From the NCBI GenBank assembly GCA_964386095.1, contig CAYLQM010000001.1:4372-68371 (forward strand): DNA of 64,000 bases. Direction: 5' to 3'. Source of the DNA: an uncultured Methanosarcinales archaeon. Lineage in GTDB: Archaea > Nanobdellota > Nanobdellia > Woesearchaeales > JASKKU01. A model generated the notes under the pieces. The model did no database searches, had not been told where the DNA came from, and worked only from the letters and a program-made list of their open reading frames with translations. Shown piece by piece: positions 22,420-52,627 of the stretch; the stretch's first letter is position 1, and each line of letters starts with the position of its first letter. A program made the position numbers and the translations under genes.

Positions 22420-23184
22420 TTACCAAATGTCTGAGTTTTGATTCTTGGGTCTTTTCTTATGATTTTTTGTTCTGTTCTTGTTAAAAGTTATTTCCTTCTT
22501 TTTTTCAGAAAGATTCTTTGCCGAGATGAACAAGAAAATAATGTAAAAAAGGAATTCAAGATACAACGTTTTTTTGAACAGATTGATAATTCGTCCAATT
22601 AGGATTATTGAAGTGTATCCCAGGGAAACCTGGAACACTTTTGAGAATCTTAACCAACGCTTCCTTGCCCTGAGAATTGAGAAAGAAACAATGCTTGCAA
22701 CAAGAGCAATAATTATCAATTTTCCAAGTCGCAAAAAGCTCTGGTAAATGATGTTTCCTATTGAAAAAAGGATGTAACTGTTTCTTATAAGAATATGAAA
22801 TTCCCTTGATGCGGTAATGTTTGCAGTTTCAACCCGCTGAAAACAAGTGCTGAGGCATATCGGATTCTTGATATAAATGATTGAACTGTTTACGAAGTTT
22901 TTGTTTGATATGTCGACTTTTAAAGATGAAATGTTGAAATCATCTGGAAGCAGTGCCCACTGTTTTGTGATGACCGGTTTATTCCCGAGGAACATTAAAT
23001 TTAAAGAGTAATCGTTGCTTTTTAGAAGCGTAGATAAATCTTGCCAATAGAGGAAAGCATTAAATATGCTTAAGATTGTAGAAAATATCAGGAGAATTAG
23101 GATTATGTTTATTGTTTTTATTGATGAAAGCTTCTTAGCTTTAAACGGGTTAATAGAATAAAAAAGCGTTTTGAATAACTTCAT
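22420..23184 (-). CDS. Hypothetical membrane protein (254 aa; N- and C-terminal TM helices with an extracytoplasmic middle domain)
   Basis: TM segments INIILILLIFSTILSIF and LIIIALVASIVSFSIL. Last gene of the minus-strand cluster 26884->22420. Confidence 0.45.
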   Translation of the reverse strand: MKLFKTLFYSINPFKAKKLSSIKTINIILILLIFSTILSIFNAFLYWQDLSTLLKSNDYSLNLMFLGNKPVITKQWALLPDDFNISSLKVDISNKNFVNSSIIYIKNPICLSTCFQRVETANITASREFHILIRNSYILFSIGNIIYQSFLRLGKLIIIALVASIVSFSILRARKRWLRFSKVFQVSLGYTSIILIGRIINLFKKTLYLEFLFYIIFLFISAKNLSEKKKEITFNKNRTKNHKKRPKNQNSDIW

Positions 23185-23204
23185 TTTTTACATCCCCCTG
23201 AATT

Positions 23205-25694
23205 TTATGTTGTATAACTGTCTCCTAAAATTACTGGATCATCGAATCCAAGTTTTGGAAGCGAGGCAAAATATGGTGAGTTAAGATAATAATTATACAC
23301 TTTCGATTGATAAAGATTTGCCTTTTCTAATACTTCCTTAAAGTAAGCCGCTGTTTCAAGAACCCTTCGTGGATAAAATCTGCTTTGATCGGGAATGTGA
23401 ATGTCTGCTGCTGCAGCTGCATTCTCCAATGTTTCTCCAAGCTTTTCCTTGTCCCTCGCTCCCGGATATTTTTCTAAGAAATTATCTACATTAGATGGTC
23501 CCCAGTTGTATGCGAGTAATGCAACACCTAAGTTGTTATTATATCTTTTTATTAAATTTTTTAGGTATCGCACTGCAACAACCATATTTGGTTCATATTT
23601 GTTCATATCCTCCCACTCGTATCCTTCACCAAAGTCTTCCCAAACTGCATCGGAAACTTGACAGACTCCCTTGATGTTTTTAAGTCCTTCTGAGTTAGTT
23701 ATTTTGATTTCTTTGCCGTTTTCTTTTTCACCCAAACGATGCTTCTGTTGGATGCCACCTTCAATTGTTGCCAAGCCCATGAGAAGTGCAGGATCAAAAT
23801 TATTTTCCTCTGCAACCTTCTGAGCTGTAGAATAAAGTATTGGATAATCACCGATCAATTCAGCATAGGTTTTGCTAACCTTGTTGTTAGAAAATTCTGT
23901 TTTTTCTATTTTTTCAACGAATTCTTCATCAGCCTTTGCTGAGAGAGTTTTTTTTTTAATTACTTTAACCGCGGGACTTGAGATTTCGTATTCATATTTT
24001 ATTTTGGTATATACTGGCAGTACGGCTTTATAACTTTCAGAAAGAATGTTGCTGTCAATAGTCATAATGCATGGCAAAATGTATTGGTCGCCTTGTTTTA
24101 TTAAGTTCACTTCCTCAATACTTTCGAAGCAATGATAAGCTCCTTGTAGTGTGCTTGTGTCGTCAAAACCGAAATCCGAGAAACAATTCTTTCCTGTTTC
24201 TTCAAGGCCACAATCTGATAGATGTATTTCTTTTGGAGCAAGTATCTTTACATTCTTAATCTCCTTAAATCTTCCACTTCCACTGTTTCTTACGGAAAGG
24301 ATAAACATGTGTTTGTTGTTTTTGGTTGAAATTTGAATGGGATATTCACTCATTTCCCCATTGGCAGATAATCCTACAACAACAGGACCTGAAGAACTCT
24401 TGGTTGATTGGGGTCCATTGAGAAAACCCGATTCTTCAAGATAAGGATTTTTGTTTTGAGCAATGTATTCATATAACTTTTGCTGTTGCATAAAGTAAAA
24501 TTCTCGACTTGCAAATGTGGAAAATTCATAAATTACGTTGGCCTTTAGGGAAGCTTGATAGCTCTTATCAAAAGATATAGCTTCTGAAGGGATCTCGCAA
24601 TTAAGGATTTGGTAACTTAAGGCATTTCTCAAAGGAGCTGGCTCGTCGCAATTAATGCTGTAGCCATTGTCAATGTCTCCAGAAATGGAGTCTATTCTAA
24701 TGGTGTACTTCTCGGTGTTATTAAGGATTTCTCTGGGAATTTGATTCTGACTAGCGCCCTTAAATGATGCACTTATTTTTAACTCAATTTTCTCATTTTC
24801 ATCTACATAAGGCGGCAAAGGTAATGCTGAGGTTATTTTCACTTCTAAAGCTTGTTGCTTGGCGTCATATTGTCCTCTGTCTGATTGGAATGGAGCAATT
24901 CTTTCATTGATCCAGCTTCCGTTTATTAGTCTCTTGATTGGATTAATTATTGAATTTTTAAAGGAACCCCAGAAAGCTTTTGAACCTTCTTTCAAGCGTT
25001 CTGTGATGCTTTTCATCGCAATTTTAGCTTGAATTTGTTCTCCAGGATTGAGCCCTGGAACAGATATCTGCGATGAAATCCTTTGAATATAAGGCCAGGA
25101 CATAAGTGCGAGGAATATTAAAAAAATGGCTATAATCTTTCTAACAAAAGGTGTTGTGGAAGGTCTCTTATAGCTTGAATACAATAGTGCGAACAAGGGC
25201 CATATTGGTAGTAATATCCTGTTCACCAAGAAATATGGATTATTAATCATTCTTGACAGAAGGGGAAAGAAATATACTTCAATCACAAGAATTAGACCAA
25301 AAGCAATGATGTTTCTAAACAGGGCTGTCAAAAAGCCTTCTCCTTCATTCCTCAAAATTGAAAAAATCATTACGAAAAATAGAGCTATCCAAAAATGAAT
25401 TGCATAAACTGAGGAAATGTAAGAATAACCAAACATGATCCCGTCGATGAAAATGTGCTGGAAAATCGTAATTAGAATGAACAGGTCGTAAACATCATAT
25501 GGAAAAAAAGAGCGCAAGAACGCGAACAATCCTTTCCCAACTTTCTTTCCCATTCCAAAACCAACCCCCCCAATTACTCCTGCTGCAAGCTGAGGGCTTA
25601 TCATTCGTGGTGTGTTGAGAAAACCTCCGATTTTTTTAAAAGCGCTACCAATTACGCTCCCAAGTCCTTTAAGAAGACTAGCCTTCTCGCTCAT
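23205..25694 (-). CDS. Large polytopic membrane protein (829 aa) with a C-terminal lytic-transglycosylase (SLT/GH23 lysozyme-like) domain
   Basis: ~7 N-terminal TM helices, a large non-cytoplasmic middle region, and a C-terminal SLT-like segment: LLMGLATIEGGIQQ...SEGLKNIKGVCQVSDAVWEDF...VAVRYLKNLIKRY...LLAYNWGPSNV. Compare the SLT signature ES...GLMQ...AYNaGpG. Confidence 0.5.
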   Translation of the reverse strand: MSEKASLLKGLGSVIGSAFKKIGGFLNTPRMISPQLAAGVIGGVGFGMGKKVGKGLFAFLRSFFPYDVYDLFILITIFQHIFIDGIMFGYSYISSVYAIHFWIALFFVMIFSILRNEGEGFLTALFRNIIAFGLILVIEVYFFPLLSRMINNPYFLVNRILLPIWPLFALLYSSYKRPSTTPFVRKIIAIFLIFLALMSWPYIQRISSQISVPGLNPGEQIQAKIAMKSITERLKEGSKAFWGSFKNSIINPIKRLINGSWINERIAPFQSDRGQYDAKQQALEVKITSALPLPPYVDENEKIELKISASFKGASQNQIPREILNNTEKYTIRIDSISGDIDNGYSINCDEPAPLRNALSYQILNCEIPSEAISFDKSYQASLKANVIYEFSTFASREFYFMQQQKLYEYIAQNKNPYLEESGFLNGPQSTKSSSGPVVVGLSANGEMSEYPIQISTKNNKHMFILSVRNSGSGRFKEIKNVKILAPKEIHLSDCGLEETGKNCFSDFGFDDTSTLQGAYHCFESIEEVNLIKQGDQYILPCIMTIDSNILSESYKAVLPVYTKIKYEYEISSPAVKVIKKKTLSAKADEEFVEKIEKTEFSNNKVSKTYAELIGDYPILYSTAQKVAEENNFDPALLMGLATIEGGIQQKHRLGEKENGKEIKITNSEGLKNIKGVCQVSDAVWEDFGEGYEWEDMNKYEPNMVVAVRYLKNLIKRYNNNLGVALLAYNWGPSNVDNFLEKYPGARDKEKLGETLENAAAAADIHIPDQSRFYPRRVLETAAYFKEVLEKANLYQSKVYNYYLNSPYFASLPKLGFDDPVILGDSYTT

Positions 25695-25705
25695 ACTTTT
25701 TTCAC

Positions 25706-26884
25706 CTAATTATCGGAGATGTATATCTCTAAATGCAGAATGTTCACTTCCTCTGAAACAGGTTCTATTTTTAAATAGTTATTTCCTTCTCTCAGAAATG
25801 AGTTTACTTTGTAAGTGTATATCCTGTCAGAAGTTTCAATATCTGTTTTTATGCCATTAATGTTAACAATAAGTCTTCTATTCTTCAAGTCATCAGGAAA
25901 CTCGACTTTGAGAATAGCATCTTTTGAATTGAGCGAATCAATCTGTTCTTTAGAAACCTGGAAGTAGTATAGTGGATAAGAGGCTTCTTTCAGTTTTGTG
26001 ACAAGTTTAAGCTCATCAATTTTTAAAACGCCTTTTTCAAGAGAGAATTCTAAGTTGTTTTCTCCTTCCAGTATCCTCGATTGACTGATTTCTATTACAT
26101 TAAGGTTGTTGCATGCAGGCGTGCTTTCGTGGACTATTTGATTGTTTAGTTTAATGGTGAGTTTGCCGACTTTGTTAATATCGCAAGTGGTAATGAAATA
26201 AAGTTTAGCAGACTTTAAATTATTAAATTCCTTCTCATAAAGCATAAAACCTGTTTTAGCTGTTAAACTGTCTTTTTTTAGGATGTTAGCTATGATCTTT
26301 AAGTCATTTAATTTAAGTTTGCTCTTGAAGAAAATGAATGGTTTGCCCAGTTTGAAAGCGAGCGTGTTTTCTTTTTGAAGATATTTTGCCGGAATTTCTA
26401 TCGGGTTAATGCTTCCAGAATGTAGTTTATCAGAATAAATCGTATAACCGTTGAGGATTATGTTAGTGATTCCTTTTGATTCATCCACTTTAAAACTAAG
26501 ATATGCTTTTTCTACTTCTTCAGGGTTATCTAGAAGGAACCTTACTTCATTGCTTTTTTCGGAAAAAAAGCTCCTGTCTGTGTAAAAAGAATTTAGGTAA
26601 AAAATCTCTTGGGGTAATGACTCCGCGCAGAGATACAACATGGGCATGGGATGTTCTATCGAATCTTGATCAATTTTGTTAATCTTGCCAGGACTTCTTG
26701 AAAGCAGAGTGTTTGAATTAACCGTTGAAACATTTGAGCTCGTTGTTTCATTATCAGAACCCAGAATTTCATCTCTCGCCTCTGGGGGAATTAAAAGGAG
26801 ATATGCTATGAACAAAAGAATAATTAACACGACAATCATTGATGGTTTTAACTCTTGACCTCTTTTGGAATTGGGCATTGACAT
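25706..26884 (-). CDS. Hypothetical secreted/membrane-anchored protein (392 aa)
   Basis: N-terminal signal-anchor MIVVLIILLFIAYLLLI, then a Ser/Thr-rich linker and a beta-rich domain. First gene of the cluster. Confidence 0.45.
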   Translation of the reverse strand: MSMPNSKRGQELKPSMIVVLIILLFIAYLLLIPPEARDEILGSDNETTSSNVSTVNSNTLLSRSPGKINKIDQDSIEHPMPMLYLCAESLPQEIFYLNSFYTDRSFFSEKSNEVRFLLDNPEEVEKAYLSFKVDESKGITNIILNGYTIYSDKLHSGSINPIEIPAKYLQKENTLAFKLGKPFIFFKSKLKLNDLKIIANILKKDSLTAKTGFMLYEKEFNNLKSAKLYFITTCDINKVGKLTIKLNNQIVHESTPACNNLNVIEISQSRILEGENNLEFSLEKGVLKIDELKLVTKLKEASYPLYYFQVSKEQIDSLNSKDAILKVEFPDDLKNRRLIVNINGIKTDIETSDRIYTYKVNSFLREGNNYLKIEPVSEEVNILHLEIYISDN

Positions 26885-26997
26885 TTTTTCACTTCTTTAT
26901 ATCTTGATTATATCTTGAAACTGCTTATTTTTAAATTTTTTTTATTTATACAATTTTCGTTTACTCCCTTTAAAAATAAAACAGTATACAAAAAAAC

Positions 26998-27019
26998 ACA
27001 ACCTTTAAATAAAGGTTGT
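26998..27019. promoter_or_regulatory. Perfect inverted repeat ACAACCTTTA-AA-TAAAGGTTGT (10-bp arms) 14 bp upstream of gene 27033
   Basis: Read directly from the sequence. Placed over the promoter/5'UTR of the first paralog. Confidence 0.45.
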
Positions 27020-27032
27020 TACCTTATTTTGC

Positions 27033-27479
27033 TTGAGAATGGTAATTTTATTTGATAAATTCAATTTGCCTGATGATATTTTGGATGTTATTTTCTCAAC
27101 CAATAATCAGAGAGCTGTCGCTAAGCTGCTTATGGAATACTTTAAGCAGAATGATGGGGTTCTTGATAAAAAGCAAATGTCCCTATTTGCTAATTCGCTT
27201 CATCTTGGCTTAATTTTTAAGGGGGATATTGAAGGCATTAAAAGTCATAAACCTTTGGTATATAATAAAAGGCAATTTTACGATAGAATTATTACCCCAA
27301 TGAAGAGCATGGGCCTAATTACTTATGATTTGTATGATAAAAAATATAAATTGGGCGGTGATTTTAAAACTCAAATGGCAAAGCTTGGCGAACTGTTTGA
27401 AAAGAAAATAAATGAAGAAAAGAAAGATATAAAGTTCTCTTTCTATCCTCCTGAAGAGATAAAACGAAAGTTACAATAA
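27033..27479 (+). CDS. Small winged-helix-like protein, paralog 1 (148 aa)
   Basis: ~50% identical to ORF 28258..28671 over ~120 aa. Shared blocks: MVILFD.(F/Y)NLP(D/E)DI..VIFST, MSLFA..LH, YNKRQFYDRI(I/L)TPMKSMG(L/M)I.YDLY.K.Y.L. Confidence 0.5.
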   Translation: MRMVILFDKFNLPDDILDVIFSTNNQRAVAKLLMEYFKQNDGVLDKKQMSLFANSLHLGLIFKGDIEGIKSHKPLVYNKRQFYDRIITPMKSMGLITYDLYDKKYKLGGDFKTQMAKLGELFEKKINEEKKDIKFSFYPPEEIKRKLQ

Positions 27480-27558
27480 CAAGGATATAATGGATAAGAG
27501 ATATTATGGGAAACACGAAGACAAGATTAATCCGTTTCCTTGGAAACTTTTGATAACT

Positions 27559-28077
27559 TTAAAAAAAGAGATTGAATATTCTCTCTGAAAGTTTCAGGGG
27601 TTTGCGTTTCTTGTTTTTTATAATTGGCGCTTTTATAAGTGTCAGGCTCTCATTTGTTTGTTTTGTAATCTGATTTTTCTCTTCAATAAGGTTTTTAATA
27701 GATTCACCATTACTATCTTCTTCTGATTCAAAATCCGATTTGCTTTTGACTGTAATCAAATCCCGTTTGCTGTCCCTATCCATTGAATCTAAGAAATACT
27801 GTAAACAGTCTCTTCCGCAGAAATATGCTCTTCTCCTAAAACTTAATTTTCCGAAGATTAATTCCAGGTATTCATCAGATAAAGCATTGCCGCATACAGA
27901 ACAAACTTTATGTTCTTTTCTGTTTATTTTGATAATCTGTTCTTTTATTTCATTTACAAGGAAATCATTATTTGTGGAAAGCAGCTTGTAAAGCTCGATT
28001 AAATCCTCTTCATAAAGCGAATCCAAAAATTTTTTTAATTTTTTCAGAGTCATTTTCGAAAAATATATAAATCCCAA
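27559..28077 (-). CDS. C4 zinc-finger protein (172 aa; start possibly the internal Met at 28053)
   Basis: CSVCGN...(20 aa)...YFCGRDC zinc-ribbon motif and an acidic C-terminal region. Lies between the two paralogs on the opposite strand. Confidence 0.45.
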   Translation of the reverse strand: MGFIYFSKMTLKKLKKFLDSLYEEDLIELYKLLSTNNDFLVNEIKEQIIKINRKEHKVCSVCGNALSDEYLELIFGKLSFRRRAYFCGRDCLQYFLDSMDRDSKRDLITVKSKSDFESEEDSNGESIKNLIEEKNQITKQTNESLTLIKAPIIKNKKRKPLKLSERIFNLFF

Positions 28078-28079
28078 AT

Positions 28080-28099
28080 AGTATAGTTTTAACTATACT
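28080..28099. promoter_or_regulatory. Inverted repeat AGTATAGTT-TT-AACTATACT (9-bp arms) in the divergent intergenic region between the Zn-finger gene and paralog 2
   Basis: Read directly. Same arm/2-bp-spacer architecture as the 26998 palindrome but a different sequence. A TATA-like AAATATATAAA lies just beside it. Confidence 0.45.
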
Positions 28100-28257
28100 G
28101 ATTGAGTTATGTGCTAATTAATATAAATATTTTTCCATTGATTGATGATTTTTATTAGTTTTTACTGTGAAGTGACATATCTTAGGAAAGCTTTATAAGA
28201 TGAGGGTGTTATACCCACTTATCAAAAGGTATTAAAAACTGTAAAGAGGGATACAAA

Positions 28258-28671
28258 ATGGTAATTTTGTTTGATATGTATAACCTGCCTGAGGATATCT
28301 TCGAAGTGATTTTTTCTACTAAACAACAGGCAATTGTTGCAAGGCAGTTGTTTAAAGAGTTTAAACACCATGGAGGAATTATGACTAAATCTGAGATGTC
28401 TCTTTTCGCTACGCAGCTCCACAATGGCGAATATGTTGCAAAAATAGATGAACCTCCATTCATTGGAAAGAAAGTAAAGTTATCATATAATAAGAGGCAG
28501 TTTTATGATAGAATATTAACGCCGATGAAAAGCATGGGGATGATTTATTACGACTTGTATAAAAAAACTTATTCGCTTTCGGACAATTTCAGCAAGCTTA
28601 TGCAGAAATTTGCAATCATGTGGAATCTGGAGTTAAAGAAACCATTGGGAAGTCCAATTAAGCGAGCATAA
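28258..28671 (+). CDS. Small winged-helix-like protein, paralog 2 (137 aa)
   Basis: Paralog of 27033..27479 (see that entry). Confidence 0.5.
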   Translation: MVILFDMYNLPEDIFEVIFSTKQQAIVARQLFKEFKHHGGIMTKSEMSLFATQLHNGEYVAKIDEPPFIGKKVKLSYNKRQFYDRILTPMKSMGMIYYDLYKKTYSLSDNFSKLMQKFAIMWNLELKKPLGSPIKRA

Positions 28672-28735: not shown

Positions 28736-29737
28736 ATGATTTCTGAAACTGAAGCCGTTTCCCTTCTTGAAAAATTTGCTAAAGACGGAGATTCTTTTAA
28801 TAAGATATTGTCCCATTCAAGAGAGGTTCAAAGAGTTGCTTTGTTAATAGCACAGGATTTCCTAGCCAACGGAGTTGAGGTTGATCTGGATTTAATCAAA
28901 ATCGGAAGCTTGCTTCATGACATTGGTCGGCTTACATGCTTCCATTTAAATCCTGAAAACTGCTCATTAATTCATGGTGTTGTCGGAGCTGAGATTATTC
29001 GAGAAGAACTTATGGACGAATCTTTAACTTTGATTTGTGAAAGGCACATTGGTTCAGGCATTCTTGAAGAAGAAGTTGAACTTTTAGAATTGCCTTTGCC
29101 AAAAAGGGATTACATGCCTGAATCCAATGAAGAAAAAATTATTACTTATGCGGATAATCTCGTTTTTGATGATGTCGTCAAAACTTTTGATGATGTTTTG
29201 ATCAGATTTCTTAATCAGCTCAGTTTTCTTGTTGTTGGACGATTCTTAAAATTGCACAATTTTATCATGCGGAATTCCGGAAAGAGTGATAGGGTCATAG
29301 ATGTTGCTAATTTTTCTTTACAATGGATGTCAGACTATCTTGATTTTCATAAACAATCTGAAGTTTTCACTAAACTTTTGAATAAAGTATATCTTTCAAA
29401 AAGCAATTTAAAAATCAAAATATTTTTAGATTCATTTATGCCTGAAGATTTTGTTTTGCTGGAAAAAGATACAAATTATGCTCTTTTTGTTTCAACATCC
29501 AAAGCAGATGTATTTAATTTATCCTTGGAAGGTCGTTTGCTTGAAGAAAAAGAATTTTCTGCTCTTCAGAAGAATTTCGTTACAATATCAGGGGAACGGA
29601 AATTGTTAGCTGAAATAATGTTTAAGTTTGATGATTTTGTTAAAAATCCAAAATCTTTTTTCAAATACTTTCGGAAACTTAAAGTGCCTGCATCATTTAA
29701 ATTTAAAGTTCTGCATTCCTTAATCGGCTTGATTTAA
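28736..29737 (+). CDS. HDIG/HD-domain protein with a ~170-aa C-terminal extension of unknown function
   Basis: HSREVQRVALL...IGSLLHDIGR...HGVVGAEII is an HD(IG) metal-dependent phosphohydrolase core. The C-terminal half has no match. Confidence 0.55.
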   Translation: MISETEAVSLLEKFAKDGDSFNKILSHSREVQRVALLIAQDFLANGVEVDLDLIKIGSLLHDIGRLTCFHLNPENCSLIHGVVGAEIIREELMDESLTLICERHIGSGILEEEVELLELPLPKRDYMPESNEEKIITYADNLVFDDVVKTFDDVLIRFLNQLSFLVVGRFLKLHNFIMRNSGKSDRVIDVANFSLQWMSDYLDFHKQSEVFTKLLNKVYLSKSNLKIKIFLDSFMPEDFVLLEKDTNYALFVSTSKADVFNLSLEGRLLEEKEFSALQKNFVTISGERKLLAEIMFKFDDFVKNPKSFFKYFRKLKVPASFKFKVLHSLIGLI

Positions 29738-29857: not shown

Positions 29858-31123
29858 ATGGGAGAAATTCTTAAAATAAAAGCACGGCAGGTTTTTGATT
29901 CTAGAGGCAATCCTACTGTTGAAACTGAAGTGATTACGAATAAGGGAATCTTTAGGGCAATGGTGCCGTCAGGTGCCTCCACTGGTTCACATGAAGCGTT
30001 GGAATTAAGAGATGGCGGGAAAGATTATTTGGGCAAGGGTGTTTTTAAAGCAGTTTCGAATGTTAACAAAATTATCGGACCAAAACTGGTGGGCTTAAGT
30101 CCGGAAAACCAGAGGGAAATTGATGAAATCATGTTGAAACTGGATGGCACCGAAAACAAGAGTAAGCTTGGTGCCAATGCAATTTTGTCTGTTTCTATGG
30201 CTGTTTGCAGGGCGGGCGCTGCTGAGAGAAATATTCCTTTATATCAATATATTGCAGAGCTCTCGAATCGGAGTTTACTGATGCCGATTCCTTTTTTTAA
30301 TGTAATCAATGGCGGTAAGCATGCTGGAAATGGGTTGGATATTCAGGAGTTTATGATAACTCCAGTAGGCGCCGAATCTTTTGCAGAAGCAATGAAGATG
30401 GGTACAGAGGTATATCATAACTTAAAACAAATTATCAAGAAAAAATACGGCAAGAATGCGATTAATGTTGGAGATGAGGGGGGGTTCGCTCCTCCTTTGG
30501 AGGATAATGAAGAACCACTCAAATTGTTGGTTGAGGCAATTGAAAGTTCAGGTTATGCAGGGAAAGTTAAGATAGCAATGGACGCCGCCGCCAGTGAATT
30601 TTTTGATGACAACCAATACGTATTTGGCGGGAAGAATTTATCGGCAGATGATTTGATTGAATTTTATAAATCAATTGTTAAGAACTATCCCATAATTTCC
30701 CTTGAAGACCCTTTAGCGGAGGATGATTGGGAAAAATTTGTTAAAATAACTGATGAATTGCACGGCAAAATTCAGATTGTAGGAGACGATCTGTTAGTAA
30801 CAAACCCAAAACGCATTGAAAAAGCAATTGAATTAAAGGCATGTAATGCTCTTTTGCTTAAGGTTAATCAAATAGGTAGTGTCAGCGAGGCAATCGAAGC
30901 GGCAAAACTCGCGGTAACAAATAATCTAAACGTGATGGTCAGTCATAGGAGCGGTGAGACCGAAGATAATTTTATTGCAGATTTAGTTGTGGGTTTAGGC
31001 GTTGGTCAAATTAAAAGCGGGGCACCTTGCCGGTCCGAGAGATTAGCTAAATACAATCAATTGTTAAGAATCGAAGAGAAGGGCATAGCATATAATACCC
31101 ATTTGAATACCCATTTGTTTTGA
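29858..31123 (+). CDS. eno: Enolase (phosphopyruvate hydratase)
   Basis: N-terminus [22 protein letters not shown]. Active-site regions SGETED and (I/L)[10 protein letters not shown](S/T)E. 421 aa. Confidence 0.95.
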
Positions 31124-31253
31124 AATAATTGATTTTAGATTTGAATCACGGATTTTTTGCTTTTTGAAGAAATTCGCATGCCTTTTTTATTGTTTGATTG
31201 AGAAGTGATGAAAAACCTTTAAAAATGTGTTTTGAATAATCTCGTTTAATCAA

Positions 31254-32531
31254 ATGAAAACCGATTTTTTCGAAGAAGGCAAGTCGCGTAGTCACTTTAC
31301 CAAATTTTCTGAGATTATTAAATTGAAGGATAAATTTATTATCAATGAATTTTTCATTAGGTTAATCCTTGTTTTTGTTTCTGCGCAGTTTATTAATCTT
31401 TTAGTTTATAATTACACAAGATCTTTCATGTATGTCTCTCTTGTAGCATTGTTTCAGGTATTACTTTCCTTCTTGTTCGCATCTTTTAATTACAACTATG
31501 AAATTAAAAAAAGCACTATTTTTCTTACTATGATTCTGTTATCGGTTTGCTTATTTGCTTTTGGTTATTTTTATGTTCTTCAGAAAGATTCTCTTTTGAT
31601 TTTTGCAGTTCTTATCCCGGCAGTTTTTAGTTTTGTGATGTCATCTTTGAACAGGTTCAAGAGTAATTTTTTGCCACACGAACAATTTTCTTTTGTTTTA
31701 AGGTCCATTAATCAAATCGGTCTTGTTCTTACTTCATTTTTGATGATTTTCTTTGGTTTTTTAATAGATATTCTTCCAACAAAACAGAGTTTAACTGCAA
31801 CATTTGACCTTGTCAGAATTCTTGCAGTCAATGATTTTTATCTTATTTATGTTCTTGGCGGAGCCGCTGCTTTGATTTATGCATTGTTTTTCTTTTTTAA
31901 TTCTAAAGACGCTTATAAGAAAACTGGAAAATTGGTTAATTTGAGTTCTTTTAGGAAGGATCCGTTGATTCTCATCTTTTCGCTCTTTAACTCAATAGTA
32001 AATGTCTCACTCATTTTTGTTGGGCCTTTTTTATACGAAAGTTTAAATTATTTGAAATATAGATTTACAGCAGTTACTCTGATTTTTTCTTTGGCAATGA
32101 TGTCTTCAGTTGTGTCCCCGAGAATTGTCTATAGTAATTTGCGAAGATATGGTGCGTTCTTTGTAGCACTCATTGGATTGCTTTTGTTCTTGTGTTTCCC
32201 TATTGCAATGCTATTCTTTGAGGATAATATTTTGTATATCGTGCTGGGAATATATTTAGGAACCTTGGGTGCATCAATGGCAACTTACTCTTTTGAATAC
32301 ACTCTTACTAAGAAATATTCTAAGGAAGATTTCGCGAAATCAAAGTTTTCGTTGCAAACTATGACAGCTTTTATTGAAACGCTTATATTGTTATTCTCGT
32401 CATTTAGTTTGATTGCTTTGCCTTTGGGTTTAATTTATAAACTTCTATTTGCTTTCACTATTTTTACCTCAGCGTTTTATGTGGTTTATAGCAAGTTCAT
32501 TTTTAGGAACCGCATGAAAAATATAGTTTAA
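31254..32531 (+). CDS. Hypothetical polytopic membrane protein (425 aa, ~10-12 TM)
   Basis: Hydrophobic throughout, with no recognisable transporter signature. Confidence 0.45.
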   Translation: MKTDFFEEGKSRSHFTKFSEIIKLKDKFIINEFFIRLILVFVSAQFINLLVYNYTRSFMYVSLVALFQVLLSFLFASFNYNYEIKKSTIFLTMILLSVCLFAFGYFYVLQKDSLLIFAVLIPAVFSFVMSSLNRFKSNFLPHEQFSFVLRSINQIGLVLTSFLMIFFGFLIDILPTKQSLTATFDLVRILAVNDFYLIYVLGGAAALIYALFFFFNSKDAYKKTGKLVNLSSFRKDPLILIFSLFNSIVNVSLIFVGPFLYESLNYLKYRFTAVTLIFSLAMMSSVVSPRIVYSNLRRYGAFFVALIGLLLFLCFPIAMLFFEDNILYIVLGIYLGTLGASMATYSFEYTLTKKYSKEDFAKSKFSLQTMTAFIETLILLFSSFSLIALPLGLIYKLLFAFTIFTSAFYVVYSKFIFRNRMKNIV

Positions 32532-32555
32532 ACACCTTTTAAATGAGTGGGATAA

Positions 32556-33053
32556 ATGATTATTAGAAACAATCAAAAGGGGATGTCACCTTTAATTGCG
32601 CTGATAGTATTAGTTTCGATAGCTGTATCTCTAGGAGTCCTGACGATAAATATAATAAATCTTCTTACTTCGGACGAATCCAGTTCTCCTGTATGCGGAT
32701 TAGTTGATTTTAATATAAAGAAATTCAAAGAGAATTATTTTCTTTGCATAACTGATTCAAACAAACTCTCATTCATTCTGGAAAATACCGGTAAACAGAA
32801 AATAGATGCTTTCAAGATTTCCGTAATTGGTTCTTCTAAGAGTTACTCTACAGAGCTTGAGGCAAATCTTGATGTCGGTGAGCTTTTAGATAAGAGGCAA
32901 TCACCGCTGCCTTTCGGGGTTATAGGAATTTTGTATGAAGTGAAGATTCTCCCAGAAGTGAAATCGGCTGAGAATGGCAAACATGTTCTTTGCACAGAAA
33001 AAGCAAAGAGCTTTGTGGACATTCCGAAGTGCACACAATTAGAAATATCTTAA
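32556..33053 (+). CDS. Archaeal type-IV-pilin-like protein with a class III signal peptide
   Basis: The N-terminal basic stretch ends in KG, followed by the hydrophobic stretch MSPLIALIVLVSIAVSLGVL. This is the PibD/FlaK-type prepilin cleavage context. Confidence 0.5.
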   Translation: MIIRNNQKGMSPLIALIVLVSIAVSLGVLTINIINLLTSDESSSPVCGLVDFNIKKFKENYFLCITDSNKLSFILENTGKQKIDAFKISVIGSSKSYSTELEANLDVGELLDKRQSPLPFGVIGILYEVKILPEVKSAENGKHVLCTEKAKSFVDIPKCTQLEIS

Positions 33054-33168
33054 AATAAACTGCGAAGCAATATAACAGTATTCGATTAAATAAGCTAATC
33101 TTTTCAAAATCTTTATAACTATGTGAGATCATCTTTATAAGGTATTATTTTAAGTTGATAATGTTAAA

Positions 33169-33960
33169 ATGATTGAAGCCAAACAGATTATTCAGTGGTT
33201 TAATGAGGATACATCTTTAAGCTGGCGGGATATTATTTACAAAATTGTTAAAGAGAAAAGTATTGACCCTTGGGATGTTGACGTTTCTTTGTTGGCAAAG
33301 GAGTATCTAAATACCTTAAAGGCTTTAAAGGAATTTAATTTTCAGATTTCTGGAGATGTTGTTCTAACTGCGGCAATACTTTTAAAATATAAATCTAAAA
33401 AGCTGATAGACGAGAAACTTAGGAATTTTGAGGATTTGCTGTCTTCAGCTGATGAAGAGGATGCTAATTTCTTTATGCCGGATTTCTTTGATGGGGCGGA
33501 TAATTTTGCAATTGATACATCCGATTTTGATTCTCTTGATGATTTGCCGACTAACCAAAAGGATTTCGTTCTGAGGCCCAGGGTTCCACAAGCTAGACAG
33601 AGAAGAGTTTATTTGAACGATTTGATTGATGCTTTAGAGAATGCTTTGAGTGTCAAGAAAAGACATTATTCTAAAATGCTTAACAAAGAGCCGAAGACGA
33701 CTTACGAGAAGAAATCCCTGTTTGATATAAGGGCTATCGTAAATCAAGTTTTTGAGAAGATATTGGATGCCTTTAAAAGATTCAAAACACGAAAGATAAG
33801 TTACGACATTCTGGCCACTGATTCAAAATCCGAAAAGATTCAAACTTTTGTGGCTTTAGTGCACTTAGATTTTCATCAAAAGGTAGAACTTCAGCAAAAT
33901 CAGAGTTTTGGCAATATTGACATTTACTTAAAAGATGCGGAAAACAATATCAGGATTTAA
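33169..33960 (+). CDS. scpA: Segregation and condensation protein A (ScpA, kleisin)
   Basis: SIDPWDVDVSLLAKEYLNTL...ISGDVVLTAAILLKYKSKKL parallels the ScpA N-terminal region (IDIYDIPVAKITEQYL...ASEYLVMAATLLSIKSRML). Acidic middle region and a basic C-terminal winged-helix region. Confidence 0.6.
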   Translation: MIEAKQIIQWFNEDTSLSWRDIIYKIVKEKSIDPWDVDVSLLAKEYLNTLKALKEFNFQISGDVVLTAAILLKYKSKKLIDEKLRNFEDLLSSADEEDANFFMPDFFDGADNFAIDTSDFDSLDDLPTNQKDFVLRPRVPQARQRRVYLNDLIDALENALSVKKRHYSKMLNKEPKTTYEKKSLFDIRAIVNQVFEKILDAFKRFKTRKISYDILATDSKSEKIQTFVALVHLDFHQKVELQQNQSFGNIDIYLKDAENNIRI

Positions 33961-51335: not shown

Positions 51336-51653
51336 ATTGAAGATCAGCTTAATTCAAAAGGAAAACAAACACGAAATGTTTGGGCAATTCCACTTACACC
51401 AAAAAAGGAAAAATGGGCAGGAGAACATCCAACTCAAAAACCTGAAGAATTACTTAGGAGAGTTCTATTGGCATGCACTAATCCCGAAGATTTAGTTTTA
51501 GATCCGTTTTTGGGCTCTGGCACAACCTCAGCAGTCGCTATGAAACTAAGAGGAAACTCAATAGGCATTGAAAAAAATAAAAAATATTTGGAAATCATAA
51601 AAATTTGTAAACAAATTTTCTTAATATCTTTGAGGGGAGATGTTATCTCTTAA
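51336..51653 (+). pseudogene. C-terminal remnant of a beta-class N4/N6 DNA methyltransferase (motif I only; catalytic DPPY half absent)
   Basis: Open frame after a stop at 51333 encodes ...NVWAIPL...[58 protein letters not shown]. This is the HPTxKP + DPFxGSGTT + IGIE signature. No ATG is present and the listed start is TTG. Confidence 0.55.
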
Positions 51654-51753: not shown

Positions 51754-51936
51754 ATGATTGGCATAACTGAATTATTGATAATCTTGCTGATAATTTTAAT
51801 TCTTTTTGGGCCAAAGAGACTGCCTGAATTGGCAAGAGCTATAGGAAAATCGGTTCATGAATTCAAAAAGGCTTCGAGGGGAGAATACGCCGAAGATGAA
51901 AAGCCCAAAAAGAGAAACACAAAAAAGAAAAAGTAA
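51754..51936 (+). CDS. tatA: Twin-arginine translocase subunit TatA
   Basis: TM LLIILLIILILFGPKRLPELARAIGKSVHEFKKA matches the TatA/E consensus. Confidence 0.8.
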   Translation: MIGITELLIILLIILILFGPKRLPELARAIGKSVHEFKKASRGEYAEDEKPKKRNTKKKK

Positions 51937-52627
51937 TCTTATCAAGAGACCTCTCGCTGAACACTTGGAAGAGTTCAGATTTAGGATGCTCTTTTCCCTT
52001 TTTTTCTTTATGATAGTTTCACTAGTTTTATTTTTTGTCTCCCCTTATGTTTTAAAAAGAGTAATAAATGATTTCATAAATAATTCCGTGAAAATTGTTT
52101 CTTTAAGTCCAACGGAGGTAATACTGTCGGAAATAAGAATTGCTCTGTTTCTTTCTTTTATTGCATCACTGCCTGTGTTTATTTATCACTTATTCAAGTT
52201 CGTTAAGCCGGCAGTTAAAGATAATGAAAAACCTATGTTTGTTCTGTTCATTCTGTCCAGCCCTTTATTGTTTCTGCTTGGAAGCTGGTTTGCTTACTTT
52301 GTTGTATTGAAGTTTGCAATTGCCTTTTTTTCAAAAATCTCTTTGGTTGTAGTGAATTACAACTTGTGGAGTATTAAGGAATTGACCAAATTCATTCTGA
52401 ATTTTTGCTTCTCTTTTGGGCTCGTGTTTGAATTGCCTCTCATAATGTTCTTTTTAAATGCCTTAGGTTTGTTAAGTAAAGATGACTTTAAAAAATACCG
52501 ACCTTTTATTTATGTGATTATTTTTGTTCTCGCAGCCGTAATTACCCCGCCAGATGTTATCACCCAGTTGATTTTAGCTTTCCCGTTAATAATTCTTTAT
52601 GAGTTGTCCTTGCTTTTTATTAGATGA
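51857..52627 (+). CDS. tatC: Twin-arginine translocase subunit TatC (true start probably an internal Met, e.g. 51896)
   Basis: LAEHLEEFRFRM near the N-terminus and 6 TM helices. The track ORF overlaps tatA by 80 bp in another frame. Confidence 0.75.
   Translation: MNSKRLRGENTPKMKSPKRETQKRKSNLIKRPLAEHLEEFRFRMLFSLFFFMIVSLVLFFVSPYVLKRVINDFINNSVKIVSLSPTEVILSEIRIALFLSFIASLPVFIYHLFKFVKPAVKDNEKPMFVLFILSSPLLFLLGSWFAYFVVLKFAIAFFSKISLVVVNYNLWSIKELTKFILNFCFSFGLVFELPLIMFFLNALGLLSKDDFKKYRPFIYVIIFVLAAVITPPDVITQLILAFPLIILYELSLLFIR

Follow-up and report, generated by a model that had tools for sequence, protein, structure and literature searches.

Organization of the locus

The window analyzed here is a 64-kb stretch of DNA. 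Within it, two small plus-strand genes (paralogs 1 and 2) flank a minus-strand zinc-finger gene, and a gene for an HD-domain protein follows paralog 2. The genes and features of the locus are listed below; all TATA-like elements are predictions.

26983..27011, plus strand: paralog-1 promoter module, typical of the lineage, with AGTATAC at 26983-26989, an A-run and a BRE-like ACAACC, and a TATA box, TTTAAATA, at 27004-27011
26998..27019, no strand: palindrome 1, ACAACCTTTA-AA-TAAAGGTTGT, perfect, overlapping the BRE/TATA core of the paralog-1 promoter module
27039..27479, plus strand: paralog 1, a 146-aa winged-helix protein (predicted fold) of a small divergent subclade, pI 9.3
27559..28053, minus strand: C4 zinc-finger gene, 164 aa, starting at ATG 28053 and not at TTG 28077
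28064..28071, plus strand: predicted TATA-like TATATAAA to the left of palindrome 2, with CGAAAAA upstream; kept in L003 to L005
28080..28099, no strand: palindrome 2, AGTATAGTT-TT-AACTATACT (AGTATAG-TTTTAA-CTATACT), perfect, a candidate operator
28120..28127, minus strand: predicted TATA-like TTTATATT, with a purine-rich BRE-like GGAAAAA upstream
28192..28199, plus strand: predicted proximal TATA-like TTTATAAG for paralog 2; kept in L003 to L005
28258..28671, plus strand: paralog 2, 137 aa, a canonical member of the Woesearchaeota-wide winged-helix family, pI 9.6
28736..29737, plus strand: HD/HDIG phosphohydrolase gene, 333 aa, with the N-terminal ∼160 to 180 aa TIGR00295-like

Much of what an earlier, sequence-only reading of this DNA had described was recovered. 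The two small genes, put at ∼50% identity, are paralogs (52% identity over 122 aa; E value of 3e-39), the C4 zinc-finger gene lies between them on the opposite strand as claimed, and the protein encoded after paralog 2 matched HD/HDIG families and has a C-terminal half without a family, in agreement with its description as an HDIG protein with a novel C-terminal half. Both perfect palindromes are likewise present, at 26998-27019 and 28080-28099. Their existence proves nothing by itself, because the number of perfect palindromes in the window (arms of at least 9 nt and spacers of at most 4 nt) was at the chance level (3 observed versus 2.5 ± 1.3 in local Markov simulations). The start of paralog 1 was assigned to ATG 27039 rather than TTG 27033 because MVILFD opens every homolog.

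A conserved family of predicted winged-helix proteins

The paralogs had been assigned to an "ORFan block," an assignment that did not survive the family search. Clustering at 90% identity divides the family, which was found in at least 588 species genomes, into 4139 clusters, and at 50% identity all of these merged into essentially one. In Woesearchaeota (GTDB Nanoarchaeota/Woesearchaeales), the family is near-universal, and its evolution is very slow. Between the window and its closest relative (L003), the winged-helix protein retained 91% identity and enolase 76%. Conservation above that of enolase is unusual for a specific regulator and is a better fit to an abundant architectural or general factor.

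The predicted fold of these small, basic proteins (16 to 17 kDa) is a winged helix, as the earlier reading had proposed, with the order H1-b1-H2-H3-b2-wing-b3 and H3 as the recognition helix. A long C-terminal helix is predicted at residues 110 to 127, after the winged-helix core, and a 22-residue beta-hairpin, atypical of the classic helix-turn-helix, lies between helix 2 and helix 3. Helix 3 (YNKRQFYDRILTPMKSMG) is rich in K, R, Q, and Y and is invariant over thousands of sequences, which suggests base-specific reading. Searches for named relatives of the family were negative. The paralogs had no match in Pfam or NCBIfam at an E value of ≤0.1 and no significant profile match to the winged-helix families PadR, MarR, ArsR, TrmB, Lrp/AsnC, IclR, and GntR. 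A profile search against PDB sequences gave 0 matches at an E value of ≤10, and one of 1.84 billion representative proteins recovered the family alone. Foldseek against PDB gave no significant neighbor (the best matches, LmrR/PadR, were nonsignificant, with an E value of 0.12 and TM scores of 0.36 to 0.45), and neither the family nor the AGTATA motif was found described in literature searches.

Paralog 1 has few close orthologs (91% identity in L003 and 61 to 63% in P0122 and P0123). Compared with L003, its dN was 0.065 and its synonymous sites were saturated; despite this saturation, the intergenic regions at both winged-helix loci retained 86 to 87% identity. The helix YNKRQFYDRI(L/I)TPMKSMG is the same in the paralog-1 clade and the canonical clade, while the beta-hairpin insert, wing tip, and C-terminal tail diverge. 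In related genomes, paralog 1 is found at an unrelated locus, between the SecDF and DUF5652 genes. We regard paralog 1 as an older duplicate that has evolved faster than the canonical paralog 2. Because the recognition helix was kept and the hairpin insert, wing tip, and C-terminal helix were altered, we infer that paralog 1 has changed partner or dimer properties and the same DNA specificity.

Palindrome 1 coincides with the core of a shared promoter module

The promoter of paralog 1 has the form AGTATAC-N12-TTTATATA(CT), a module of ∼34 bp. The center of its TATA box lies ∼31 nt 5′ of the paralog-1 ATG, which predicts a near-leaderless mRNA. AGTATAC occurs a single time in the 64-kb window; the 120 nt upstream of family genes contained it at 3.6 per kb, compared with 0.07 per kb elsewhere. 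The motif is also phased with the promoter, at a fixed distance of 12 nt from the TATA box: RRTATAS was found 11 to 14 nt 5′ of TATA in 40 of 73 family-gene promoters, compared with 8 of 452 other TATA matches (Fisher P = 8e-32).

In metagenome contigs of relatives, the same module was present upstream of other genes as well, with a tally of ∼33 ftsZ, ∼32 hairpin-RNA, 3 pilin, and 28 winged-helix genes; ribosomal-protein and translation-factor genes were absent from the 114 evaluable module matches. These occurrences overturned an interpretation of the AGTATAC-TATA block as private to the winged-helix gene and hence as proof of autoregulation.

Palindrome 1 had been proposed as an operator of paralog 1. 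In L003, it has one mismatch in an arm and lies within a near-identical block of ∼100 nt. The paralog-1-type genes of L083 and L085 lack it and have CAGTATAG-N13-TTTAAATACTAT upstream instead. In the window, palindrome 1 coincides with the BRE/TATA of a module common to other genes. Comparative evidence therefore did not bear out the proposal, and palindrome 1 is probably an incidental symmetry of the BRE/TATA core and no separate operator. The related idea that each paralog has its own operator was not supported either, given the same absence in L083 and L085 and the recognition helix shared by the two clades.

Palindrome 2 is an inverted repeat of fixed spacing

Palindrome 2 consists of inverted AGTATA half-sites with an 8-nt gap (AGTATA-N8-TATACT; 20 bp) and is located 27 nt 5′ of the zinc-finger ATG and 159 nt 5′ of the paralog-2 ATG. 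Its significance derives from comparative data, namely, the rarity of the motif in the window and its recurrence upstream of orthologs. AGTATA-N(4-22)-TATACT was seen once in the window, with 0.03 occurrences expected. When one mismatch was tolerated, the 260 nt upstream of family genes yielded 15 copies of AGTATA-N8-TATACT, compared with 10 in the other ∼1 Mb of sequence (0.66 versus 0.010 per kb, or ∼66-fold enrichment). The enrichment was confined to spacer 8; spacers of 4 to 7 and 9 to 12 gave 0 to 3 upstream matches each. At least 10 independent lineages show the same combination of half-sites and spacer, and an inverted repeat of fixed spacing is conserved in the family's own promoters across orthologs. 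These data agree with the operator-like behavior that had been proposed for palindrome 2.

Individual lineages gave further detail. L089 and L104 have AGTATAC-TTTTAA-GTATACT, and the candidate operator of L089 (AGTATACTTTTAAGTATACT) is palindrome 2 with a symmetric G/C swap. In L003, both hexamers are intact and all 4 substitutions are located within the 8-nt spacer, an outcome with a probability of 0.014 by our own count, C(8,4)/C(20,4). In type II promoters (L041, L056, L057, L065, and L068), the repeat lies directly 3′ of the TATA box. Among module-type promoters, the spacer-8 repeat was present at 4 of the 28 winged-helix genes but at none of the 33 ftsZ or 32 hairpin-RNA genes. In the divergent family members P0266 and P0309, no comparable motif was found upstream, and a search there for covariation between operator and recognition helix yielded nothing interpretable.

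The predicted promoter elements around palindrome 2 place it near transcript starts. Rightward firing of the TATA-like element at 28064..28071 would start transcription inside the palindrome, and the zinc-finger transcript from the opposed element at 28120..28127, where TATAWAWATTTTTYCATT is kept in L003 to L007, is predicted to start at the palindrome edge. Downstream of the proximal element TTTATAAG, a Shine-Dalgarno-like GAGGG at 28246-28250 precedes paralog 2.

Gene neighborhoods and the zinc-finger and HD proteins

At least 8 lineages (L003 to L007, L009, L212, and L213) share the zinc-finger/winged-helix/HD arrangement, and in each of them a zinc-finger homolog is divergent from and 5′ of the canonical winged-helix gene. 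The HD gene of L212 and L213 abuts or overlaps the winged-helix gene, which implies an operon there. These partners accompany the winged-helix gene in this subclade but not in the family overall, whose neighbors are variable: in neighborhood clustering, the zinc-finger gene was upstream of the winged-helix gene at 7 of 71 loci and the HD gene was downstream at 9 of 79, and an HD gene was counted directly 3′ at ∼10 of 82 loci. A conserved operon or module was rejected because of this variability. A defense or toxin-antitoxin module was also rejected; PADLOC returned nothing for the paralogs and only noise (E > 3e-3) for the zinc-finger and HD proteins, and paralog 1 is unlinked in relatives. 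The locus had been described as self-contained and immunity-like, and these same observations speak against that description.

In the zinc-finger protein, an N-terminal helical part is accompanied by C-x2-C-G-x22-24-FCGxDC, a basic tail, and ..FSLFF, which is conserved at the C terminus; its own cysteine motif is C-x2-C-x24-C-x3-C. A word-indexed homolog search returned the self-match alone, and homologs were collected by tblastn on fetched loci. The four Cys residues are invariant in 7 homologs, with a spacing of 22 to 24. Profile matches were all subthreshold (DUF7576 in 5 of 7 members, with a best E value of 1.3e-3, and Arc_trans_TRASH in 2 of 7, with a best E value of 6e-3), Zn_Ribbon_1 and A2L_zn_ribbon matched faintly in single members, and the single-sequence AF2 model (pLDDT of 48) was too poor for use. 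From its motif, the finger looks TRASH/zf-FCS-like.

The HD protein matched Pfam HD (6e-14; 52.8 bits, with a cutoff of 22) and TIGR00277 HDIG (5e-12; 45.6 bits, with a cutoff of 27.6). Its match to TIGR00295 (1.3e-33; 116 bits) was under the 172-bit equivalog cutoff. By these profile scores, it is an HD superfamily member, TIGR00295-like but without equivalog status. The C-terminal ∼150 aa had no family match in Pfam or NCBIfam.

A putative autoregulated DNA-binding protein and alternative explanations

We suggest, with a probability of about 0.5, that the paralogs represent a winged-helix DNA-binding protein that regulates its own gene and has zinc-finger and HD partners specific to certain lineages. 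Paralog 2 would be the canonical gene and, in this sublineage, would form a unit with the divergent TRASH-like zinc-finger gene and the downstream HD gene. A dimer of the protein would bind AGTATA(C/G) half-sites. Palindrome 2, between two opposed TATA elements and at the predicted starts of the zinc-finger and distal paralog-2 transcripts, would block initiation when occupied, resulting in negative autoregulation and coregulation of the zinc-finger gene. The single AGTATAC 12 to 14 nt 5′ of TATA (26983-26989 for paralog 1) would be part of the module that in relatives may also drive ftsZ, the hairpin RNA, and pilins. The putative link between the protein and the AGTATA motif is one of guilt by association, and the half-site centers are 14 bp apart, longer than for most winged-helix dimers, which is a point against this reading.

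Since the module is common to ftsZ, hairpin-RNA, and pilin genes, the winged-helix protein may be a global regulator of a small gene set; given the same usage, the module could instead represent a consensus for strong promoters or be bound by another factor. It is rather unlikely that the protein is the master regulator of a small, order-wide Woesearchaeota regulon (its own gene, ftsZ, pilins, and the ∼60-nt hairpin RNA, whose C-rich loop is anti-Shine-Dalgarno-like) that shuts itself off via AGTATA-N8-TATACT. Such a regulator would act via AGTATAC held 12 nt 5′ of the TATA box and would be modulated, in particular lineages, by the paralog-1 clade and the TRASH-like zinc-finger protein.

A possible, if doubtful, alternative is that the protein acts as an abundant general or architectural (nucleoid-associated) factor rather than as a sequence-specific regulator, that the module, used by highly expressed genes, marks the strongest promoter class or the site of another factor, and that palindrome 2 is a by-product of duplicated promoter pieces. 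The small size and basic character of the protein, its conservation beyond that of enolase (essentially one cluster at 50% identity from 4139), neighborhoods as variable as those of a stand-alone housekeeping gene, and the presence of the module at the ftsZ, hairpin-RNA, and pilin genes tallied above are all consistent with this explanation. However, a generic strong promoter leaves unexplained why the spacer-8 repeat is spacing specific and enriched at family promoters only; moreover, ribosomal-protein and translation-factor genes are missing from the 114 evaluable module matches, and the invariant helix 3 points to base-specific reading. We consider it very unlikely that the protein is instead an RNA-binding partner of the linked C-rich-loop hairpin RNA, exerting posttranscriptional control to which the DNA palindromes are irrelevant. 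RNA binding is known for some winged-helix domains, and ROQ and eS19 appeared in the fold lists; at 13 of 86 loci, the hairpin, which consists of GGCTCCC..(ACCCCC loop)..GGGAGCC and a T-run, follows the stop of the winged-helix gene immediately or is adjacent to that gene, and elsewhere it has a module promoter of its own, with compensatory stem changes in 5 of 7 pairs and a loop complement that includes GGGGGTG, the Shine-Dalgarno-like motif of many winged-helix mRNAs. Yet the hairpin was not found in the window or at most family loci and may be a plain terminator, and this reading offers no explanation for the spacer-8 DNA repeat of family promoters. Rfam had no family for this RNA at the gathering threshold.

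That both palindromes are chance symmetries or terminators in AT-rich intergenic DNA, with no operator role, is highly improbable, although for palindrome 1 alone this is essentially our own view. The window-wide palindrome count equals expectation, and a terminator scan flagged palindrome 1 on both strands (stem plus T-rich tail). The terminator reading, which had been raised as the alternative to operators, was rejected because both palindromes sit between divergent gene starts and no gene ends at either one; chance is opposed by the recurrence of the palindrome-2 pattern across lineages and by substitutions in L003 that spare its half-sites. The original picture, a self-contained regulatory or immunity-like module in which each paralog has a private palindrome, drew on two paralogs with two differing perfect palindromes of similar geometry close to zinc-finger and HD genes, an arrangement preserved in L003. 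It now appears extremely unlikely: the recognition helices are identical, palindrome 1 is unconserved in its clade and coincides with BRE/TATA, paralog 1 of relatives lies at the SecDF/DUF5652 locus, the family is an order-wide core gene, PADLOC gave no matches of note, and the palindrome count is at chance.

Relation to known systems and significance

Archaeal regulators of the PadR-like, MarR-like, Sso10a, and STIV F93 types combine a small winged helix with a C-terminal dimerization helix and have palindromic operators overlapping BRE/TATA or the start. The family described here resembles them in its predicted winged-helix core followed by a long C-terminal helix, its palindromic element in its own promoter region, and its basic, ∼16-kDa proteins. 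In contrast, it lacks a Pfam/NCBIfam winged-helix or PDB sequence match, has the 22-residue beta-hairpin insert and half-sites 14 bp apart, and is conserved far above typical specific regulators; its dimerization and DNA binding are putative. CdrS (Halobacteria) and aCcr1 (Sulfolobales) are small archaeal transcription regulators of cell division and the cell cycle with a ribbon-helix-helix fold. Like them, the family is a small predicted DNA-binding protein with a promoter motif in common with the ftsZ promoter of relatives, which suggests a small regulon including a division gene; unlike them, it is a predicted winged helix, and the link to a regulon comes from promoter sequence alone. ftsZ was not found in the 64-kb window.

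DPANN archaea are not cultivable alone, and to our knowledge, almost nothing is known of their gene regulation. The locus draws attention to an uncharacterized predicted winged-helix protein, one of the best-conserved proteins of Woesearchaeota, and AGTATA-N8-TATACT and the AGTATAC-BRE-TATA module are concrete motifs that recombinant protein and synthetic DNA would make testable. Should the link between protein and motif be true, it would provide a first handle on the control of ftsZ, pili, and small RNA in these reduced cells; were the master-regulator reading true, a new transcription factor family would preside over cell division and the cell surface in DPANN archaea. If the link is false, the protein would still be a candidate abundant chromatin or general factor that deserves a family definition. 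The locus also illustrates that perfect palindromes in AT-rich archaeal intergenic DNA often fall on the quasi-symmetric BRE/TATA core and need comparative support.

The two partner proteins each depart from their nearest known families. The zinc-finger protein shares C-x2-C-G...(F/Y)FCGxDC...F with the TRASH/zf-FCS/Arc_trans_TRASH pattern (C-x2-C-x19-22-C-x3-C), but its spacing is 24 rather than 19 to 22, all matches are under curated thresholds, and the protein stands alone rather than being fused to a helix-turn-helix, its finger being accompanied by an N-terminal helical part and a basic tail. The N-terminal 160 residues of the HD protein match the archaeal TIGR00295 HD proteins, from which it differs by the extra C-terminal domain of ∼150 aa, confined to the zinc-finger-linked subclade.

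A conserved family of predicted winged-helix proteins

The locus contains the following features:
26998-27019, palindrome 1
27039..27479, plus strand, paralog 1
27559..28053, minus strand, zinc-finger gene
28080-28099, palindrome 2
28258..28671, plus strand, paralog 2, the canonical copy
28736..29737, plus strand, HD gene

The two small open reading frames are true paralogs, as the sequence-only reading had proposed (52% identity over 122 aa; E, 3e-39). Because all homologs begin with MVILFD, paralog 1 starts at ATG 27039 and not at TTG 27033. Neither paralog matched Pfam, NCBIfam, PDB sequences, or PADLOC. Neither is anything like an orphan: a search with paralog 2 retrieved 4,139 clusters at 90% identity, most of them 63 to 72% identical to the query, and a back-translated pattern scan found the gene in at least 588 species-representative genomes, all Woesearchaeota/Nanoarchaeota (a few MAGs being mislabeled). 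A profile search of 1.84 billion representative proteins returned only 80 entries, most of them fragments of the family itself and none with a known domain; the family is thus isolated and very slowly evolving. This conservation is extreme. Between the window and its closest relative, L003, both paralogs are 91% identical (dN, 0.05 to 0.065, with synonymous sites saturated), compared with 76% for enolase, 66% for the MFS transporter, 56% for the HD protein, and 45% for the zinc-finger protein. No description of the family or its motif was found in the literature searched, and it constitutes a new family within a known kind, belonging by sequence to no named family. Distant members of 200 to 330 aa (P0291, P0292, and P0310) have a divergent helix 3 and long N- and C-terminal extensions without known domains.

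An AlphaFold2 model built on a 31-sequence alignment (pLDDT, 82; pTM, 0.72) predicts a winged-helix fold, in support of the earlier guess. The modeled elements are helix 22-37, strand 41-43, helix 44-55, beta-hairpin 59-75, helix 79-92, wing strands 96-99 and 104-107, and C-terminal helix 110-127. Helix 3, the recognition helix of winged-helix proteins, is formed in the model by the invariant block YNKRQFYDRILTPMKSMG. The 22-residue insert between helices 2 and 3 is unusual, as is the lack of a close structural relative. Both paralogs are basic (pI, 9.3 to 9.6).

Paralog 2 clusters with the canonical clade. The clade of paralog 1 is small and long-branched and is made up of the window, L003, and P0122/P0123 (the last at 61 to 63%). 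SecDF and a DUF5652 gene flank the paralog-1-type gene in the genomes of P0122/P0123, where it is apart from the canonical copy; thus, adjacency of the copies is not conserved. In other genomes, two copies of the canonical type lie far from each other (L028/L056, L032/L077, and L024/L079). Helix 3 is identical between the two clades; most of what distinguishes them maps to the hairpin insert, the wing tip, and the C-terminal region (helix and tail). This pattern argues for paralogs with the same DNA specificity and altered protein contacts.

Palindrome 1 and the promoter module

Both perfect palindromes were found where the sequence-only reading placed them. With arms of at least 9 nt and a spacer of at most 4 nt, the window holds three such palindromes, compared with 2.5 ± 1.3 in local first-order Markov simulations. 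Taken alone, the palindromes are therefore not beyond chance, and any claim must rest on comparative evidence. The third (51600-51619; AAAATTTGT-AA-ACAAATTTT, 9+2+9) lies upstream of ORF 51857..52627.

When the upstream regions of about 80 family genes were lined up, a strikingly conserved block emerged: (C/T)CAGTATAC-AAAAA-CGTAACA-TTTATATA-CTAGT. In 40 of 73 family promoters, the TATA box is preceded by the half-site RRTATAS at a distance of 11 to 14 nt; for other TATA matches in the flanks, the figure is only 8 of 452 (Fisher P, 8e-32). AGTATAC occurs once in the 64-kb window. The paralog 1 promoter is a variant of the block (CAGTATAC at 26982-26989, AAAAAAA, CACAACC, and TTTAAATA at 27004-27011), so palindrome 1 (ACAACC-TTTAAATAAA-GGTTGT) resolves into a BRE/TATA core plus six fortuitously complementary bases. 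One arm is mismatched in L003, and the ACAACC/GGTTGT symmetry is absent at the paralog-1-type genes of L083 and L085, which keep the block CAGTATAG-N13-TTTAAATACTAT. Since the TATA center lies ~31 nt from the ATG, the paralog 1 mRNA is probably near-leaderless.

A metagenome scan for AGTATACAAAAANNNAANATTTATATA yielded at least 120 loci. Among the matches listed, what followed the ~34-bp module was a winged-helix family member at 28 loci, ftsZ at about 33, a short hairpin RNA at about 32, a pilin-like gene at 3, and something else at 18; none was a ribosomal or translation gene. The module therefore belongs to a small gene set and represents either a regulon or a strong-promoter class. The notion that it is private to the winged-helix gene, and hence proof of autoregulation, was overturned by the FtsZ, hairpin-RNA, and pilin-like loci. 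The form CCAGTATACAAAAACGTAACATTTATATACT(A/G)G is almost identical before different genes in many Woesearchaeota (metagenome contigs L087-L206; also L024, L035, and L045 around 7861-7887).

Palindrome 2 and the divergent promoters

Palindrome 2 is an inverted pair of AGTATA hexamers separated by 8 nt, the only AGTATA-N(4-22)-TATACT of the window (0.03 expected). A search of ~1 Mb of family loci that tolerated up to one mismatch located AGTATA-N8-TATACT 15 times in the 260 nt preceding family genes and 10 times elsewhere (0.66 versus 0.010 per kb); one of those 10, in L006, is also upstream of a family gene. The repeat is spacing specific: spacers of 4 to 7 and 9 to 12 gave 0 to 3 upstream matches each. 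It is present in several clades, lying directly downstream of the TATA box (L041, L056, L065, and L068), upstream of the module (L028, L043, L054, L066, L081, L089, and L104), or in the zinc-finger/winged-helix intergenic region (the window and L003-L006). At module-bearing promoters among the matches listed, it accompanied 4 of 28 winged-helix genes and none of the 33 ftsZ, 32 hairpin-RNA, or 3 pilin promoters. L089 and L104 have AGTATAC-TTTTAA-GTATACT, one symmetric G/C exchange from the AGTATAG-TTTTAA-CTATACT of the window. All four substitutions between the window and L003 20-mers fall in the central 8 nt, leaving both hexamers intact (probability by our combinatorial estimate, C(8,4)/C(20,4) = 0.014).

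Palindrome 2 sits 27 nt 5' of the zinc-finger ATG. On either side of it is a TATA-like element, the two facing each other and both kept in L003-L007. The elements of the region are as follows:
28064-28071, rightward, TATA-like TATATAAA, CGAAAAA upstream
28127-28120, minus strand, leftward, TATA-like TTTATATT, GGAAAAA upstream
28192-28199, proximal TATA-like element
28246-28250, GAGGG Shine-Dalgarno

The archaeal TATA-to-start distance is usually about 26 nt, which would place the starts predicted from both opposed elements in or at palindrome 2. The proximal element and GAGGG probably serve paralog 2 as well. GTATACT(G/A)A occurs 16 to 55 nt upstream of the zinc-finger ATG in all zinc-finger-linked loci. 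The entire palindrome 2 intergenic region is 87% identical to that of L003 despite saturated synonymous sites, which indicates constraint on the region as a whole. Both 26885-27038 and 28057-28257 are 86 to 87% identical to L003 (flanking genes, 80% coding nucleotide identity with synonymous sites saturated), with a near-identical ~100-nt block at 26920-27025 and a conserved TATAAATATTTTTCCATTG(A/T)TGAGTG at about 28122-28150; constraint extends beyond the palindromes.

Zinc-finger and HD partners

The antisense gene between the paralogs encodes a 164-aa protein with four invariant cysteines, C-x2-C-G-x22-24-(F/Y)FCGxDC; the finger is TRASH/FCS-like, with every family match below threshold. 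In L003-L007, L009, L212, and L213, which form one monophyletic subclade, homologs precede the canonical gene in divergent orientation. Their hydrophobic C-terminal end, (E/Q)(K/R)(I/M)(F/Y/K)SLFF (27559-27600 in the window), is conserved and preceded by a variable, very basic low-complexity linker.

The gene at 28736 encodes, as first described, an HD/HDIG protein with a novel C-terminal half, its last 150 residues lacking any match; this extension occurs only in the zinc-finger subclade. About 10 of 82 loci, from more than one clade, have an HD gene 3' of the winged-helix gene; in L212 and L213 the two abut or overlap, indicating an operon there. Neighbors otherwise vary widely. The triad is thus a lineage-specific elaboration rather than a fixed module.

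Proposed mechanism and alternatives

We propose that a dimer of the winged-helix protein binds AGTATA half-sites and that palindrome 2 serves as an operator where divergent promoters overlap; its occupancy would confer negative autoregulation and coregulation of the zinc-finger gene. The lone AGTATAC preceding the BRE may be an activating or coregulatory site common to the ftsZ, hairpin-RNA, and pilin promoters. For this mechanism as a whole, we estimate a probability of about 0.5. Functionally it would resemble small archaeal and bacterial winged-helix autoregulators of the PadR, MarR, F93, and Sso10a types, with palindromic operators at the core promoter; by sequence, the locus belongs to none of them. 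Its significance would be greater if the ftsZ/pilin/small-RNA regulon link were confirmed.

The main rival, which we consider rather unlikely, sees the protein as an abundant architectural or general factor and attributes the motifs to another factor or to promoter strength; a strong-promoter class of module would suit it, and the spacing-specific repeat at family genes speaks for the AGTATA-binding dimer. Less likely than either is that the protein binds RNA as a partner of the linked hairpin RNA, which is absent from the window; we regard this as improbable. Lower still stands the original suggestion of a self-contained module in which each paralog has its own operator: the palindromes do differ in sequence, and the identical helix 3, with differences elsewhere, argues against it, making it very improbable.

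Hairpin RNA and neighborhood

The hairpin RNA is a conserved ~60-nt element with a 7- to 9-bp G/C stem (GGCTCCC/GGGAGCC; compensatory variants include GGGTTCC and GGGGCCC), a C-rich loop (TTCTACCACCCTCACCCCCTC), and a T-run (L007:7044-7113, L009:7285-7352, L012:8406-8473, L214:58-121, L093:1349-1413 on the minus strand, and about 30 more). It had no Rfam match at the gathering threshold. It follows its own module promoter or, in 13 of 86 family loci, comes immediately 3' of the stop codon of the winged-helix gene. The Shine-Dalgarno-like motif found in many winged-helix mRNAs, GGGGGTG/GAGGGTG, is present in the complement of the loop. Module and hairpin adjoin without an intervening winged-helix ORF at L073:741-945 (minus strand), where they precede an HD gene, and at L007:6994-7113, L009:7236-7352, and L213:2700-2815, just beyond the zinc-finger gene 3' end, the position of paralog 1 in the window. 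Such a unit is either an independent small-RNA gene or what remains of a winged-helix copy since deleted.

A different hairpin, GTTTCC-TT-GGAAAC followed by TTTT (27534-27551), lies where paralog 1 and the zinc-finger gene converge, within the 80 nt that separate their 3' ends, and is a possible bidirectional terminator.

The window (35% GC; AT-rich archaeal DNA) encodes enolase, an MFS transporter, archaeal-type pilin-like genes, and two tRNAs. It is collinear with L003 over the entire 22- to 34-kb stretch (22420-26884 and 29858-33960), so the supposed ORFan neighbors are conserved lineage genes. Besides enolase, MFS, and a pilin-like gene, the stretch encodes a secreted protein of 392 aa and a membrane protein of 829 aa carrying an SLT lytic-transglycosylase domain at its C terminus. 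The closest relatives of the window are MAGs labeled Candidatus Woesearchaeota or Nanoarchaeota. Many contigs with the Woesearchaeota-specific winged-helix gene (L003, L005, L007, L008, and others) were deposited as "uncultured Methanosarcinales archaeon" (binchicken coassemblies) and that of P0010 as "Nitrospiraceae bacterium"; these labels are probably taxonomic mislabels or bin contamination.
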